From Phycisphaerales bacterium (GTDB taxonomy: Bacteria > Planctomycetota > Phycisphaerae > SM23-33): a stretch of DNA of 64,000 bases. The notes under the pieces were generated by a model. The model ran no database searches, was not told the origin of the DNA, and worked only from the letters and a program-made list of their open reading frames with translations. The position numbers were made by a program, and so were the translations under genes. The stretch lies in assembly GCA_018644725.1 (NCBI GenBank), contig JABGPZ010000069.1, forward strand, positions 148,238 to 212,237, written 5' to 3'. Below, piece after piece: positions 1,056-47,613 of this stretch (position 1 is its first letter; each line of letters starts with the position of its first letter).

Positions 1056-1129
<74 letters not shown>

Positions 1130-1177
1130 TACGGCAAGGCTGAAACGTCTTCGGATGGTTCCAGCCAACCCCATACT

Positions 1178-1250
1178 GGGGGCGTAGCTCAATTGGGAGA
1201 GCACCTGCTTTGCAAGCAGGATGTTGCAGGTTCGAGTCCTGTCGCCTCCA
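1178..1250 (+). tRNA. tRNA-Ala (anticodon TGC)
   Basis: GGGGGCGTAGCTCAATTGGGAGAGC ... anticodon loop TTTGCAA ... GGTTCGAGTCC. The G3:U70 acceptor pair characteristic of tRNA-Ala is present. Confidence 0.9.
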
Positions 1251-1767
1251 TGAAAACTCTATCGCGCTAGACCCCTGTTTACAGGGTGATTTGCACGAGA
1301 GCATGACTTTGAAAAAGAAAAGTTGGAAAACTTCACTTTTTTGAAAGAAAGCACTTGCAAGAGACAGAGCGAACGGCTATATTCTCCGCCCCGATGCGAA
1401 ACCGCAACGGAGCGAACAAGCGTCATCTGAGTGACGCGAAAAGAAAACTTCGAAAAAACGAAAAAAGAGCTTGCAACTTAGCGAGCGAATCAGTAAGATG
1501 TTTCACCCTTCGCTGATAACTCCGCGAAGGGAACACATAACCGACGAGCCGCAAGGGTTCGTGTAAGAAGCTGATTGACAATAGCATAGGATTAGAGAAC
1601 GTTCGAATTTCCAAAGAATTTGAACCGAGAACCAAATAAACGAGCGTTGAACACGTGCAAGCGTGTTCGATTGAACGCGCGCAAGCGTGTTCTAAAATGA
1701 ATCGATACAACTCTTATTATGAATGGCAGCTTGACTTGAAGCGGTCCGGAAACGGGCTTGCGACAAA

Positions 1768-4645
<2,878 letters not shown>

Positions 4646-4848
4646 TTGTCGTGTGCCCCCGGGCATACTGCTGCTGATCAAAATAAGACAATTTCGATTC
4701 AAGAGCTCGTTTTCTCATCTCTAATCCTATGCTTTTCATATTCATGTCAAGTCCCAAATGCATCCGAATACCGGGTGACTTTGATCCTTCGGGAAATGGA
4801 CTTGATGTAAAAATTTCTGAATGTTGTGCGACAGCGCAACATTCGGTT

Positions 4849-4957
4849 TGCCGGTGATGATACGTTAGGGGAAACACCTGTTCCCATACCGAACACAGAA
4901 GTGAAGTCCTAACGGCCGATGGTACTGCGATCGCGGGAGAGTAGGTGATCGCCGGTT
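4849..4957 (+). rRNA. rrf: 5S ribosomal RNA
   Basis: TGCCGGTGATGATACGTTAGGGGAAACACCTGTTCCCATACCGAACACAGAAGTGAAG...GGGAGAGTAGGTGATCGCCGG matches the 5S consensus. It lies ~200 nt downstream of the 23S. Confidence 0.9.
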
Positions 4958-5003: not shown

Positions 5004-5455
5004 TGCGCACTGGATTGGGGGAATCTTGCGGTCTTGTTGCTGCTTGCAACTTCGTCTGTCTTCGTCATGCTCATTCAAAAGCCCATAAAGGGCTTCTTCA
5101 CTCGCCTTCCTTGCCAGTCTTGTTTCGCCAACGCAGAACCCTCGCAATCTTCCCCCAACCCAGTGCGCGTTGCGCGGTTCCGAGCGCCAGAGGTCTTGGG
5201 GCAGCCAGGGGAGGAAGATTGGGGAAAAGAGAAAGAGGAGAAAGGGGAAAGAGAAAGAGGGAAATGGAGGGAAGGTGTCAGAAATAGATGATCTGTAGAT
5301 TAAGATGCGAATTCACAGATTTAGTGCATTGAATTCGAATGCTGTTTTGTTACAATTTGTTGCCTCGATACTCCTTATGCAAATTCAGAATTTGCCCGAA
5401 GATGGAGTATTGCGATATCACTTGATTTTCCACCTACCCCAAAAAGGAGTTCCTC

Positions 5456-6394
5456 ATGTCCAAGCGTCCAAAAATTACCGTTCGCGCAATGCAGCCATCC
5501 GACCGCGCCGAAGTGGCCGAGCTGATTTGCGTGTCGACGAACTACTGGTTCCAGATGAACGGCAACCCGGCCGTGTTCCCCGACGGCCCCAACAGTACGT
5601 CAATTTATTTTGATGTCTATGAAACCCTCGATGCCGGAGAGAATCTCGTCGCAGTCAACGAAGACAATGGCTGCTTGGCGGGGTCGGTGTTCTTGCACCC
5701 GCGCGAAACCCACATCTCGCTGGGGATCATGAACGTTCACCCGAACTACTTCGGCTGCGGCGTCGCCAGTTCCATGCTCCGCGAAGCTACCAAGCGTGCC
5801 GACGAAGCGGGCAAGCCCATGCGCTTGGTCTCCAGTGGCCGCAATACCGACTCGTTCTCGCTCTACAACCGCGTCGGGTTTGTCCCGCGCGTCCTGTTCC
5901 AGGGCATGTGGCTCACCGTTCCCGAAACCGGGCTGGACGCGACGGCCGACGGCCAAGAGTTCGTTCGCGAGGCGACGCTGGACGATGTAGACGCGATGGT
6001 CGCTGTTGAGTTTGAAGTCGCCGGAATCAAACGGCCGAATGACATCCGCTATTTCATTGAAAACGTTCACGAGTGCTGGCATGTGTCGGTCTATGAAGAT
6101 GCTGCGGGCGCCATCCAAGGCTTCGCCGTTTCTTGCGAACATCCCGGCTGCCGGATGGTCGGGCCGTGCGCGTCCCGCACCGAAGCTCAGGCCGCTGCGC
6201 TCATGTTGACTGAACTCCAGCTTCGAAAAGGCCTTACGATGGCCTACATGCTTCCAGTTGCATGTGAAGAGCTGGTGAAAACCTCCTACAGCTGGGGCGC
6301 GAAAAACTATGAAGTCGCTCTCGGCCAGGTCCGCGGCGAGTACCAGCCGATGAACGGTGTCAGCGTTCCCACGTTCCTGCCCGAAACCGGCTAA
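5456..6394 (+). CDS. GNAT-family N-acetyltransferase (apparently tandem GNAT fold)
   Basis: The N-terminal half has acetyl-CoA-binding-like motifs (GIMNVHPNYFGCGVASSML, RVGF). The 312-aa length and a second alpha/beta region suggest a two-domain GNAT. Assignment is by motif memory only. Confidence 0.55.
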   Translation: MSKRPKITVRAMQPSDRAEVAELICVSTNYWFQMNGNPAVFPDGPNSTSIYFDVYETLDAGENLVAVNEDNGCLAGSVFLHPRETHISLGIMNVHPNYFGCGVASSMLREATKRADEAGKPMRLVSSGRNTDSFSLYNRVGFVPRVLFQGMWLTVPETGLDATADGQEFVREATLDDVDAMVAVEFEVAGIKRPNDIRYFIENVHECWHVSVYEDAAGAIQGFAVSCEHPGCRMVGPCASRTEAQAAALMLTELQLRKGLTMAYMLPVACEELVKTSYSWGAKNYEVALGQVRGEYQPMNGVSVPTFLPETG

Positions 6395-16977: not shown

Positions 16978-17289
16978 TTAGAATTCGGAGCCGTCGAAGT
17001 CGAGCAGGAAAAGTTCCCATCCGGTCGCGGTGTGTTGGAGGCCGGTTTGGGGGTGTTCAAATTGCATGCCGGCGGTGGCGTTGACGATTTCGATCACCGC
17101 GCCGTCGAGTTCGGCCGTCCATTGTTTTTTCAGTTCGGCGACGATGGCGGTTTTCAGTTCGGCCGGGTCCACCTGGTAGCGCTCGCCGACGAGGATTGTG
17201 ATGCGGTAGATGCGTTCATACTTCGACCACTGTCCGATGGAACGGAGGTGCAGAGCGAACTGGCTGGCAAGGTCGTTGGGGTCGATCAT
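16978..17289 (-). CDS. Hypothetical protein (103 aa)
   Basis: Intact ORF, GC3-rich, no recognisable motif. Confidence 0.4.
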   Translation of the reverse strand: MIDPNDLASQFALHLRSIGQWSKYERIYRITILVGERYQVDPAELKTAIVAELKKQWTAELDGAVIEIVNATAGMQFEHPQTGLQHTATGWELFLLDFDGSEF

Positions 17290-17389: not shown

Positions 17390-17478
17390 TAGGCCCGAAG
17401 GGCCGTCAGTTGATAGCCGGGGGCGTAAGCCCCCGGTAGAGTTGCTAAATGAGTTGAGCCCCGAAGGGGCGGCAGAGA
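17390..17478. repeat. REP array (left flank of the RAYT): modules GGCCCGAAGGGCC, GCCGGGGGCGTAAGCCCCCGG, GCCCCGAAGGGGC
   Basis: Three GC-rich hairpin palindromes read directly from the sequence. The same modules recur at 17934-18092 (inverted), 31889-32080 and 47212-47400. Confidence 0.8.
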
Positions 17479-17483
17479 ACCGG

Positions 17484-17924
17484 TCAAAGGTATCGTTCGT
17501 CGTATTCAATTTCATGTCGGTCCAACAAGCTTCGCAATTCGTCCTGAAATGACATTCGTTTGTGATGGTCTGGTTGTGTCTGAATATAGGAAACAACATT
17601 GGGAACAACCGATTGGGAAACCGAAAAAATGGAATATCCATCTTGCCATGCGAAATCTGAGTTATCTGGAAAGGTCTCATGAATCCACCGCGAGGAATTT
17701 GCTTTGATGTCACGGATGACTTCTGCTGGTGTACAAGTTGGTTGAAGGGCAAGGAGTAGGTGTAGATGATCGGCTGTCCCATTTGCAGCAAGAAGTACAC
17801 CGCCAGCCTTTCGAATGATGCCGCCTGAATAATCGGCAAGACGTTGGATTGTTTCTTTGTCAAGAAAGGGCTTTCGCCCCTTTGTGGCATAGACAACATG
17901 AAAATTGATGTCAGAAAAACTCAT
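17484..17924 (-). CDS. IS200/IS605-family (TnpA_REP / RAYT-like) tyrosine transposase
   Basis: 146 aa. HuH motif HLHLLL. Overall IS200-like Y1 transposase architecture (FHVVYATKGRKP...DHLHLLLAL...SRWIHE). Flanked on both sides by inverted REP arrays. Confidence 0.75.
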   Translation of the reverse strand: MSFSDINFHVVYATKGRKPFLDKETIQRLADYSGGIIRKAGGVLLAANGTADHLHLLLALQPTCTPAEVIRDIKANSSRWIHETFPDNSDFAWQDGYSIFSVSQSVVPNVVSYIQTQPDHHKRMSFQDELRSLLDRHEIEYDERYL

Positions 17925-17933
17925 TGCTTGCTT

Positions 17934-18092
17934 TCTGCCGCCCCTTCGGGGCTCGAGCTTGGGGGCACCTTTTCCGGGGGCTTACGCCCCCGGCTATCGA
18001 CTGCCGCGCCTTCGGCGCTGGGCGGCTTGCCATATTGCATGATGGGAGACTATTCTGTCGTGTGTCCCACGTCCTGGCCGCGCCTTCGGCGT
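17934..18092. repeat. REP array (right flank of the RAYT; inverted relative to the left array)
   Basis: CTGCCGCCCCTTCGGGGCTC, CCGGGGGCTTACGCCCCCGGCTATC, CGCGCCTTCGGCG (twice). Confidence 0.8.
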
Positions 18093-18150
18093 TAAAGGCG
18101 AGATTGCTTGCGGTATTGTTTGCACACACTTCTCGGACGGGGGGATGCCG

Positions 18151-18741
18151 TTAGATCACGCCTTTGGTGGACGGGATTTGGGTTCCGCGTCGCGGGTCGA
18201 TTTCCATTGCGCTGCGTAGCGCGCGGGCGAGTGCCTTGAAAATGCCCTCGGCAATGTGGTGGTCGTTGCGGCCGTGGGGGACGCTGACGTGGAGGTTCAT
18301 CTTTGCGACATTCGCGAAACGGACGATGAATTCCTCGATGAGTTGCGAGTCCATCGTGCCGATTTTTCCCGTGGCAAATTCGACGTCCCACACCACGTGC
18401 GCGCGGCCGGACAGGTCGAGCGTGACGTCGGCGAGGGTTTCGTCCATCGGCACACGAGCGTGGCCATAGCGGTTGATGCCGGCCTTGTCGCCGAGCGCTT
18501 TTTCCAACGCCTCCCCGAGGCAGATCGCGATGTCTTCGACGGTGTGGTGGTCGTCGATGTGCAGGTCGCCCTCGGCGCGCACGGACAAATTGATCAACCC
18601 GTGGCGTGCGAGATGGTCGAGCATGTGGTCGAGAAACCCTACGCCGGTGTGGATGTCGGCGGCGCCAGTGCCGTCGAGATTCAGCGAAAGGGTGATGTCG
18701 GTTTCGTTGGTTTTGCGTGTGATGTCAGCGGTGCGTGGCAT
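18151..18741 (-). CDS. hisB: Imidazoleglycerol-phosphate dehydratase
   Basis: 196 aa. Conserved D-x-HH-x-x-E motifs (HIDDHHTVEDIAICLG, HHIAEG). Confidence 0.9.
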   Translation of the reverse strand: MPRTADITRKTNETDITLSLNLDGTGAADIHTGVGFLDHMLDHLARHGLINLSVRAEGDLHIDDHHTVEDIAICLGEALEKALGDKAGINRYGHARVPMDETLADVTLDLSGRAHVVWDVEFATGKIGTMDSQLIEEFIVRFANVAKMNLHVSVPHGRNDHHIAEGIFKALARALRSAMEIDPRRGTQIPSTKGVI

Positions 18742-18764
18742 GGGTGGCTTTCTAGTCTATGTAG

Positions 18765-19784
18765 TTACAGGGCCGCCAAGACGGCCGCGGTTTGTTCGTC
18801 GGTCCCCACGGCGATGCGAAGATAGTCCGCAAGCCGGGGCTGTTTAAAGTATCGGACATATATGCCGCGTTCCTTGAGCCGTTCGTAGACCGCTTCGGCA
18901 TTTCTCTCTGGCGGCGCGGCGAGAAGGAAATTCGCGCCCGAGGGCACGACGTCCCATCCGCGGGTGGTCAGCTCGGCGGCGAGGGCCTCACGTGTGGCGA
19001 GAATTTTCGCGGCGTTGGCGTTTTTGTGGTCCTGATCGACGAAGGCTCTCGCGCCCGCCAGCAGCGTTGTGGTCGAGACGTTGTAGATTTCCATCGCCTT
19101 GAACAGCGCTTCAAGAATCGGCTCTTGCGCGATGGCAAAGCCCATGCGCAGGCTCGCGAGCGAATAGCCCTTCGAGAGTGTGCGCGTGACGATGACGTTG
19201 TCGCAGGTGTCCACGAGGGGCAGGGCCGTGACGCCGCAGAAATCGTAATACGCTTCGTCGACCACCAGCAGCCCGTCGAGTTTGCGGGCGAGCGCTTCGA
19301 TGGCTTCGAGCGGTTCGAGCACGCCCGTGGGATTGTTGGGATTGGCGAGGAAGGTCACCGCCGCGTTGGCCTCGGCGAGGGCGTCGAAGTCGACACGGAA
19401 ATTCTCGTCGGTGGGCACTTCGATGATCTCGGCCCCTTCGACTTGCGAAAGCGTTTCGTAGTAGGGGAACGTTGGCGTGGGGATCGCGATGGGTCCGCCG
19501 GCGGCGTGGATGACGGCCGCGAGAACGTTGTCACTGCCATTGCCCGCGAGGACGCGCGATTGGGGCACGCCGAGGGTCTCGGCCACGGCGGCAGTAAACA
19601 CCGCGCCCGTGGGGTCGGGGTAAACGCGCAGCTCGTCGTCGGAGATGTGCGCGAGCGCTTCCCACGCCTTGGGCGACGGCGGGTAGGGGTTCTCGTTGGC
19701 GTTGAGCTTGATCGCTTCGGGCCCGGGCTGGAAGCCGGGGACGTAGGGCGTCATGGCATCGATGTTGGATTTGAAGTAGGACAT
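18765..19784 (-). CDS. hisC: Histidinol-phosphate aminotransferase
   Basis: 339 aa. Class-II aminotransferase. PLP-lysine region TLSKGYSLASLRMGF and NPNNPTG. Confidence 0.85.
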   Translation of the reverse strand: MSYFKSNIDAMTPYVPGFQPGPEAIKLNANENPYPPSPKAWEALAHISDDELRVYPDPTGAVFTAAVAETLGVPQSRVLAGNGSDNVLAAVIHAAGGPIAIPTPTFPYYETLSQVEGAEIIEVPTDENFRVDFDALAEANAAVTFLANPNNPTGVLEPLEAIEALARKLDGLLVVDEAYYDFCGVTALPLVDTCDNVIVTRTLSKGYSLASLRMGFAIAQEPILEALFKAMEIYNVSTTTLLAGARAFVDQDHKNANAAKILATREALAAELTTRGWDVVPSGANFLLAAPPERNAEAVYERLKERGIYVRYFKQPRLADYLRIAVGTDEQTAAVLAAL

Positions 19785-31888: not shown

Positions 31889-32080
31889 TGAGGCCCGAAG
31901 GGCCGGCCGTCGATAGCCGGGGGCGTAAGCCCCCGGACCAGTGCGAAAAGAAATCGAGCCCCGAAGGGGCGGCAGACATTGGACTCACGATTCTTCTGTC
32001 GCCCTTTCAGGGCTCACTTCGCCGGGCTGTCTACCGGGGGCTTACGCCCCCGGCTATCCACTGTCGCGCCTCCGGCGCTG
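31889..32080. repeat. REPIN-like inverted REP doublet with no transposase between the arms
   Basis: GAGGCCCGAAGGGCC, GATAGCCGGGGGCGTAAGCCCCCGG, GAGCCCCGAAGGGGCGGCAGA on one arm. GCCCTTTCAGGGC, CCGGGGGCTTACGCCCCCGGCTATC, CGCGCCTCCGGCGC on the other. Same modules as the RAYT flanks. Confidence 0.8.
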
Positions 32081-46605: not shown

Positions 46606-47211
46606 AGCAATAGCCTCCAACCTGATTTTCTGGCCGACCTTACTACAAGGCAGAGCGGCAAAAACAGGCATGTCGTTAGGGCCTCCGAAGCAATGGTAGA
46701 GCGCGGAATGGCTCTTTTATGGCGCTTCGTGGCCGGTGTTTCCCAGACCGCCAGAACTCACATTGAGTCCCAATAGAACGATCAGGGGCGAAGAATATAC
46801 CCCGAAAGGGGAAAAAACACAAGAAAAAAGGGATAAAAACAAAGGAAAAACAGGAGAGGCCATAGGAGGGTAGGGGATAGGTTGATAGGACAGAACGGAA
46901 GAAATACACACGGGTTGTTGCTTGTACACGCCTGTGTTCTTGCTTGCAAGAATTCAGGATCAGTTTCGTAGGGGCGGAGCTTGCCGGCGCGGAATGTGTG
47001 CTGATGTCATTTTGTGGAAAACCGGGACGGGGAAAGCAGGGTGGGGGATATGGAAACCATGGGGGAGAAATATGGAAAACATGGGGACTGGTACCCTTTA
47101 TTTTGTCCTGTGTTCTCGATTTCTATCTGTTGTCAGGTACCTGTCCCCTTTTTTCCTTCGCCCCGGCCTCCAAGGCTTCAATGATTCATTCGTGTGGACC
47201 GGCCCTGCCTT

Positions 47212-47400
47212 TGCCCTGAAAGGGCAACAGGGTTTAGCCGGGGGCGTAAGCCCCCGGTAGATGTGCCCCAAAACCAAGCCCTGAAAGGGCGAAAGAGAAA
47301 TGTAGGATGGGTGTTTCTTTCGCCCCTTCGGGGCTCTTTTTATTATGCTCATTCCGGGGGCTTACGCCCCCGGCTAAATCCTTTCGCGCCTCCGGCGCTT
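47212..47400. repeat. REPIN-like inverted REP doublet (no transposase) in the rpsB-ribF intergenic region
   Basis: GCCCTGAAAGGGC (twice), TTAGCCGGGGGCGTAAGCCCCCGG, TTCGCCCCTTCGGGGCTC, CCGGGGGCTTACGCCCCCGGCTAAATC, CGCGCCTCCGGCGC. Confidence 0.8.
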
Positions 47401-47613
47401 GAGACAATCCTGTCGCATCAGTATCGTAGTCTCGTAGGGCGGGGGAGTTGTTGCTCGTCGTATTGGGGTTGCGACATTGTTGCCATGATTTTTGAATAAT
47501 TGTCTAAGTGGCGGCTGGATTATTCGTCCTTTAGGTATCGCGGGTGGAGGCTTGCGAAGGGAATTGGAATGGAAGTCCTTCAAATTGAAGTCGGGAAACG
47601 GTACAATGTCGGG

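Follow-up and report, generated by a model that had tools for sequence, protein, structure and literature searches.

What is a single small transposase gene doing between two arrays of GC-rich hairpins in a planctomycete genome? The locus lies in a stretch of 64,000 nucleotides from a Phycisphaerales bacterium, here called the window. The original prediction took the gene for a domesticated REP-associated tyrosine transposase (RAYT) that sits among its cognate REP sequences and disperses them. That prediction is partly supported: the RAYT/REP architecture is right and the family label is wrong. The locus is likely to be a REPtron-like unit, in which a Y1 transposase gene of the IS200-like branch stands between inverted arms of three hairpins each, the outer two hairpins of an arm are the Rfam motif Acido-Lenti-1, and arms without a gene form non-autonomous doublets.

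A transposase gene between mirror-image hairpin arms

The open reading frame of tnpA encodes the 146-residue Y1 transposase that had been reported, with HLHLLL at residues 53-58 (Table 1). The Pfam Y1_Tnp profile matched the product at 90 bits over the full domain, and the HuH and tyrosine catalytic residues were present on alignment: H53-L-H55 aligned with the HuH motif and Y113 (SYIQTQ) with the catalytic tyrosine of ISDra2 TnpA (PDB 2xm3). Across 40 homologs, H53, H55, W93, Q94, Q117, H120, and H121 were invariant, Y113 was at least 90% conserved, and a C-terminal tail of 29 amino acids was conserved as well (F126, E129, L134, H137, D142, E143, and Y145). Y113 is presumed to be the catalytic tyrosine. 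An AlphaFold model built on the 40 homologs reached a pLDDT of 90.8. As judged from its residues, the enzyme is intact. A tblastn search found one copy of tnpA in the 64-kb window, and the exact protein is on record from one genomic place. No tnpB was found beside tnpA, unlike in IS200/IS605 elements. A small ORF of 103 codons next to the gene (16978-17289) is unrelated to the 97-residue ORF beside the closest homolog, and therefore no accessory gene is proposed.

GC-rich palindromes do bracket the transposase in inverted arrays. Every palindrome quoted in the original prediction was found, and the two arms are inverted repeats of each other, with 51 nt at 86% complementarity and 21 nt at 100%. 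The tnpA ORF takes up the space between the arms, leaving gaps of 7 and 9 nt, and the entire arm-gene-arm unit measures 629 bp. Folding gave three local hairpins on either strand for the left arm (z about -4.8) and likewise for the right arm. A chance origin of the hairpin repeats was excluded because shuffled sequence gave expectations of 0.00 (100 shuffles), 0.06, and 0.77 where the window holds 12 strand-matches to the 20-nt hairpin, 8 matches to a 19-nt module, and 7 matches to the 13-nt GSSSCGAAGSSSC pattern, respectively. Scanning for consensus promoters and terminators was not informative, with 2 found where 0.7 and 1.7 were expected.

Scanning the window against Rfam identified the repeats. 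Six matches to RF01687, the Acido-Lenti-1 RNA, were returned at 46.1-55.3 bits (gathering score 37), and they coincide with the outer two hairpins of each of six arms. The repeats are Rfam Acido-Lenti-1, a point absent from the earlier reading of this stretch. A covariance model built from the Weinberg seed, R1, reproduced the Rfam scores. The left member of each pair lies on the minus strand and the right member on the plus strand, so that both point outward. The window contains exactly six full units, arranged as three such outward-facing pairs, and the gene lies inside only one of them. The right array had also been credited with two copies of CGCGCCTTCGGCG; both are present, but only the first (18005-18017) belongs to the right arm, while the second (18079-18091) lies 57 nt outside it in a solitary small hairpin. 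This hairpin scored only 6.3 bits with R1, over model positions 34-44, and is no full unit. It stands between the element and the end of hisB, and is possibly a remnant of another unit.

Table 1. Features of the transposase locus, the gene-less doublets, and one further region of the window (positions of the window; strand cells are empty where none is assigned).
Feature	Position	Strand	Details and basis
Left arm, three hairpins, 86 nt	17391-17476		Sequence; inverted repeat of right arm; folding; six-arm alignment
Left arm, outer small hairpin	17392-17404		GGCCCGAAGGGCC
Left arm, TAG tag	17414-17416		
Left arm, main hairpin	17417-17436		CCGGGGGCGTAAGCCCCCGG
Left arm, inner small hairpin	17458-17470		GCCCCGAAGGGGC
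Acido-Lenti-1 unit of left arm	17391-17436	minus, away from tnpA	Rfam 54.0 bits; R1 54.8
tnpA, 146-aa HUH/Y1 single-strand DNA transposase	17484-17924	minus	ORF; profile matches; homolog residues
Right arm, mirror image of left, 86 nt	17934-18019		Sequence; inverted repeat; folding; alignment
Right arm, inner small hairpin	17940-17952		Reverse complement of left-array hairpin
Right arm, main hairpin	17974-17993		Reverse complement of left-array hairpin
Right arm, CTA	17994-17996		
Right arm, outer small hairpin	18006-18018		
Acido-Lenti-1 unit of right arm	17974-18019	plus, away from tnpA	Rfam 55.3 bits; R1 55.6
Solitary small hairpin	18077-18091		GCGCCTTCGGCG; direct-repeat family D1
Doublet E2, inverted, without transposase	31891-32079		Units 31891-31936 (minus) and 32034-32079 (plus); Rfam 51.1 and 52.8 bits
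Doublet E3, inverted, without transposase	47212-47399		Units 47212-47257 (minus) and 47354-47399 (plus); Rfam 46.1 and 55.1 bits
Part of rRNA operon	1056-4957		tRNA genes 1056-1129 and 1178-1250; 23S rRNA 1771-4643; 5S rRNA 4850-4957

The other two pairs, E2 and E3, are about 190 bp long and carry a short spacer in the gene's place. E2 is located between a PEP-CTERM protein gene and ribD, and E3 between rpsB and ribF; the longest ribD and ribF ORFs had no exact-protein matches, and the called genes probably start elsewhere. As single-stranded DNA, E2 folds to -67 kcal/mol (z -7.9). Alignment of the six arms revealed an invariant 23-nt core, TAGCCGGGGGCGTAAGCCCCCGG, together with spacers that vary freely and small hairpins that vary by compensatory substitutions (GGCCC/GGGCC, GCGCC/GGCGC, and GCCCT/AGGGC). 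In the same alignment E2 and E3 share both ends with the gene-bearing unit. Such doublets of about 190 bp in intergenic DNA are best read as non-autonomous elements, REPIN- or MITE-like.

E3 is absent from the syntenic rpsB-ribF interval of a relative (locus L206; 78% nucleotide identity, synteny on both sides), where a Fic-domain gene and an Abi_alpha gene stand instead of the doublet (L206:1896-3582 against window positions 46832-47578). The comparison shows gain or loss of E3, with a different insertion in the relative rather than an exact empty site; neither a transposition event nor an excision product nor a clean empty site was observed. A second locus, from the same species (L207, 98.5% identity), stops short of the doublet. 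The rpsB-ribF interval is a variable spot.

Outward-facing units beside related transposases in other genomes

The closest homologs of tnpA, P0005 and P0007 (67% and 55% identity), are also flanked by outward units. Two larger sets of loci bear on the generality of this arrangement, one selected by the hairpin and the other by the protein. The exact 20-nt main hairpin was present at no fewer than 114 loci in 54 other species-level genomes; by their labels, the loci listed are mostly Planctomycetota, with 4 from Acidobacteriota, 3 from Verrucomicrobiota, and 1 from Armatimonadota. A homolog of the gene was carried by 7 of the 114 hairpin-selected loci listed, in either orientation. Five of these seven have an outward unit on both sides; in the remaining two, L088 and L077 (the latter cut by the edge), only the left side has one.

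The protein-selected set comprised 80 metagenome loci chosen by TnpA similarity alone, at 41-52% identity. In these loci 126 of 140 units fell within 300 nt of the gene, a density of 2.8 per kb compared with 0.055 per kb elsewhere, or about 50-fold. At least one outward unit was found in 58 of the 80 loci and outward units on both sides in 38; among the near-gene units, 103 pointed outward and 23 inward. The distance from unit to ORF was mostly 50-75 nt on either side. Five loci negative by the model were also checked. Four of them still carried long hairpin arms, inverted and enclosing the gene; in the fifth, L171, inverted hairpins lay on one side only. The link between the TnpA family and outward-facing units holds across many genomes.

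These data bear directly on whether the arrangement is a coincidence, the transposase having landed among GC-rich palindromes, for example terminators, of the kind common in a GC-rich genome. Small GC hairpins are indeed easily found in a window of 59% GC. Nevertheless, shuffled sequence is expected to yield zero matches, and the 50-fold enrichment beside homologs was obtained from 80 independent loci, at a fixed distance and with a mostly outward orientation. We regard the probability of a coincidence as practically nil.

The units themselves are organised in a regular way. Neighbouring units formed 37 outward pairs, 1 inward pair, and 17 same-strand tandem neighbours. The gap between paired units was 89-144 nt when empty and 535-577 nt with the gene inside. 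Doublets from the same genome align over their full length at 88-92% identity; because the best within-genome pairs are only this similar, recent doublet activity is not evident. Conservation breaks off sharply once the terminal CT of a unit is passed, and no clear target motif follows. Homology extends along the whole doublet, which terminates sharply in ...CT. Since inverted doublets without a transposase occur both in the window and in many genomes, the palindromes are dispersed like REPINs, as had been predicted, and are not unique to the window.

Several further observations were made in these loci. Same-strand tandem arrays with a period of about 68-150 nt (L004:2381-2909, L091:524-1644, L039:1630-1811, and L034:3225-3408) resemble the clustered REP arrays (BIMEs) of enterobacteria. 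One locus (L184:2896-5838) carries two transposase homologs separated by 2.3 kb (3001-3432 and 5296-5727), and each of them has a separate pair of outward units. A search of IMG/VR for the exact hairpin gave 1 match, and a phage-borne origin of the repeats is unlikely. The 20-nt main hairpin is identical in the six arms (the 17414-17436 region and five others) and in the 114 or more loci from several phyla. Transposases beside the identical hairpin are only 40-55% identical, the site being better conserved than the enzyme. An identical hairpin accompanied by diverged proteins is not predicted by a simple co-evolving pair of enzyme and site.

DNA or RNA as the acting form of the arms

Weinberg et al. 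2010 described Acido-Lenti-1 on the basis of 89 copies (Koribacter, Lentisphaera, Rhodopirellula, and metagenomes), judged it 'probably RNA', and noted that it sometimes lies near group II introns. In Rfam, RF01687 is entered as an sRNA gene from Acidobacteria and Lentisphaerae with no function assigned. Our literature search found no paper that ties the motif to a transposase. The units in the window have the same two-hairpin structure, CC...GG-CUA foot, and terminal CU as the Rfam family, and the third, inner hairpin is already visible in the flanks of the Weinberg et al. 2010 alignment. What differs is the setting: here a transposase stands between inverted arms of which the motif forms the outer two-thirds, and the motif is abundant in Planctomycetota. 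Contrary to the filing as an sRNA, the arms here probably act as DNA.

The arms are structured and show extensive covariation. Of all stem cells, 98.5% were paired, and compensatory double changes occurred in 12 of 13 pairs; the two foot pairs are nearly invariant and stay CC/GG. G-U pairs are nearly absent (6 of 1690 stem cells), which fits hairpins that pair on both strands. On the modelled strand of the RF01687 seed, A-C mismatches outnumber G-U pairs by 27 to 6, and therefore the complementary strand pairs better (98.2% versus 95.1%). Loops on the complementary strand conform to GNNA in 43 of 52 seed cases and to GNA in 40 of 52, and on this strand the TAG tag lies 5' of the main hairpin. 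Judged by this pairing, the strand catalogued in RF01687 may be the wrong one. The mirror-image pairing, the Watson-Crick pairing on both strands, and the outward orientation would all be more in keeping with a DNA element than with an RNA gene that is strand-specific.

The opposite view holds that Acido-Lenti-1 is a genuine structured RNA, either an sRNA or an element at mRNA ends that, for example, stabilises or regulates tnpA, and that its link to the transposase is regulatory with no DNA substrate involved; this appears very improbable. Mirror-image pairs on opposite strands, at 37 outward to 1 inward, constitute a symmetry at the DNA level for which a strand-specific RNA gene has no need. 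Oriented as in Rfam, both units head away from the gene, the catalogued strand pairs worse than its complement, and T-runs for termination are absent; the scarcity of G-U pairs adds to this. The case for RNA draws on the strong stem covariation seen here, on the position of the arms, 9 and 7 nt from the ORF, in what must be the untranslated 5' and 3' regions of tnpA, and on E. coli, whose REPs also act in mRNA. A further argument is the curation by Weinberg et al. 2010, who noted covariation and judged the motif 'probably RNA'. Our preferred reading remains that the arms act as DNA.

Family placement, mobility, and meaning of the unit

It is in the RAYT label that the original prediction failed. 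The NCBIfam RAYT model REP_Tyr_transpos (NF047646) scored the TnpA product at 23.7 bits, far below its cutoff of 80, while transpos_IS200 (NF033573) gave 71.5 bits and passed its cutoff of 55. The tyrosine motif reads YIQTQPDHH, whereas RAYTs have YxxxNP (Quentin et al. 2018, BMC Genomics 19:475, Table 1). By sequence, the closest proteins of solved structure are the transposases of ISDra2, Sulfolobus, and IS608, and the best PDB folds for the AlphaFold model are ISDra2 and IS608 TnpA (E ~1e-8); the E. coli RAYT structure 4ER8 ranks only 30th among the fold matches (E 1.4e-5).

Within the Y1 enzymes, TnpAY1 subclass 1.2 is characterised by the motifs DH[IV]H, WQ, and Y---Q--HH, a length of about 148 aa, and a C-terminal domain (Quentin et al. 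2018). It lies near IS200 and is low-copy, with 1.7 copies per genome and 36% identity between copies; it is listed as 'REP: no', occurs mostly in Cyanobacteria and Bacteroidetes, and is generally without terminal secondary structures (Quentin et al. 2018). TnpA of the window has DHLH (L for I/V), WQ, and YIQTQPDHH, is 146 aa long, and resembles the subclass also in its conserved C-terminal tail of about 30 aa and its low copy number. By its motifs, the enzyme is assigned to TnpAY1 subclass 1.2. The difference from the published subclass is that its members here, from Planctomycetota and allied phyla, have structured flanking repeats dispersed in the genome. Class 3 TnpAY1, known from Planctomycetes and Acidobacteria, has NHVH, W[TA], and YV..EQ motifs, about 178 aa, and flanking structures with a CnGA foot (Quentin et al. 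2018); it was ruled out, the features here being DHLH, WQ, YIQTQ, 146 aa, and a TAG-CC foot.

REPtrons, known for instance from E. coli and Pseudomonas fluorescens, pair a RAYT (TnpA-REP) gene with REP/REPIN repeats (Nunvar 2010; Bertels & Rainey 2011; Ton-Hoang 2012; Di Nocera 2013), and Di Nocera et al. 2013 also place them in Rhodopirellula baltica and Opitutus terrae. As in REPtrons, a Y1 HUH gene is bracketed by inverted palindromic repeats, and the same repeats are dispersed between genes, mainly as inverted doublets with some tandem arrays. Gene-less copies likewise far exceed gene copies, and an unpaired conserved tag, here (N)TAG, precedes the hairpin on its 5' side. The repeat here, however, is an 86-nt composite arm of three hairpins, compared with a single palindrome of 20-40 nt, and one hairpin variant is identical across several phyla. 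The tag differs in its first base, which is A or T and not G. In the GTAG-tagged REP superfamily (Di Nocera 2013), one end of the stem-loop bears an unpaired GTAG or a close variant in which the first G is retained; in the six arms TAG is invariant, and the base before it is A in 4 arms and T in 2. The preceding base also varies in the Rfam seed, and is G in some Koribacter copies. Several points count against a REPtron reading: the protein falls on the IS200 side, outside the RAYT clade (class 2), with Y---Q--HH instead of YxxxNP, and it fails the curated RAYT model; no transposition event was observed; the best doublet pairs within a genome reach no more than 88-92% identity; and the main hairpin is identical across phyla whose proteins have diverged.

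A second comparison is with the tyrosine transposases of Koribacter versatilis that are flanked by partly palindromic inverted repeats, named TIRYT/TIRtrons (Di Nocera et al. 2013). They share with the present unit a tyrosine transposase and long inverted repeats that contain palindromes and may form small repeat families, and they occur in Acidobacteria. The likeness is one of description, and the text of that paper draws no connection to the Rfam motif.

The closest enzymatic kin are IS200/IS605 elements such as IS608 and ISDra2, which have the same fold, HuH/Tyr/Gln catalytic set (Y113...Q117 here, the IS200-type Y---Q), small size, and hairpin ends. Classical IS200 transposases lack the WQ and HH motifs found here. 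The ends also differ: those of IS200/IS605 are asymmetric left and right hairpins carried by a single strand and lack terminal inverted repeats (Quentin et al. 2018), whereas the arms here are inverted copies of each other with loops oppositely oriented in the two arms. No tnpB accompanies the single copy in 64 kb.

The unit might nonetheless be an ordinary autonomous IS200/IS605-type insertion sequence, the 629 bp transposing themselves, the doublets being internally deleted MITEs, and nothing being domesticated. This we consider unlikely. The pass of the IS200 equivalog model (71.5 versus 55 bits), the proximity to ISDra2/IS608 TnpA in sequence and fold, and the ends that doublets and gene-bearing unit have in common are all as such an element would have them, but its ends should not be mutually inverted, and one copy in 64 kb with one recorded place for the exact protein sits less well with it. 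The subclass 1.2 motif set, with its published 1.7 copies per genome and 36% inter-copy identity, and the excess of gene-less doublets over gene units (the gene is in 7 of the 114 hairpin loci listed) point the same way.

The history of the gene itself bears on both this alternative and the 'domesticated' status originally proposed, which is not established: tnpA lies about 15 GC points under its surroundings, and its close homologs are in differing gene contexts. The GC content of tnpA is 44.2%, compared with 58.8% for the window (-14.6 points) and 61-64% for neighbouring genes, and in 56 of 60 loci the gene was below its flanks, by a mean of -5.5 points. P0005 and P0007 are found in gene contexts unrelated to that of tnpA. 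This GC offset and the differing contexts of homologs speak for mobility and suit an ordinary insertion sequence. The gene's GC content also tracks that of the host (r = 0.78, 60 loci), however, and a distant metagenome relative, L130, has the same hisC-hisB-tnpA order with flanking units (L130:667-3548 against window positions 17391-19784; identities of 60% for HisB, 45% for HisC, and 49% for TnpA). This order suggests either an old locus common to both or a hot spot for insertions. Along with the one copy in the window and the one place on record, it and the GC tracking speak for long residence and count against an ordinary insertion sequence. The evidence on long residence versus mobility is mixed. 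The reading as a REPtron-like unit remains the one we prefer.

By analogy with IS608/ISDra2 and E. coli TnpA-REP, TnpA would bind the hairpins in single-stranded DNA, for example at the replication fork, and would read the conserved foot and tag (TAG-CC...GG). Y113 would cut at the ends of the element, with a metal held by H53, H55, and Q117, and such cutting could move or copy the doublets in trans. Both catalysis on single-stranded hairpins and mobilisation of the doublets in trans are what these relatives lead us to infer.

REPtrons are already known, Planctomycetes included, and the present unit is therefore an extension and no new principle; the REPtrons of R. baltica and O. terrae and the Koribacter elements (Di Nocera et al. 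2013) make the general kind a known one. The findings join two loose ends, an Rfam 'sRNA' without a known function and a transposase subclass that had been characterised as low-copy and lacking flanking repeats. On balance we lean towards the view that Acido-Lenti-1 is no sRNA gene but the single-stranded DNA recognition module (REP) of IS200-like subclass 1.2 REPtrons in Planctomycetota, Verrucomicrobiota, Acidobacteriota, Armatimonadota, and Lentisphaerae. If true, an orphan RNA motif and an orphan enzyme subclass would gain a function together, and there would be a route from IS to REP separate from that of classical RAYTs. Matches to Acido-Lenti-1 in genome annotation probably mark the ends of mobile elements and not RNA genes, and the 86-nt arm with its invariant 23-nt core provides a defined biochemical substrate. 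The findings suggest that REP-type systems have arisen more than once within the Y1 transposase family.
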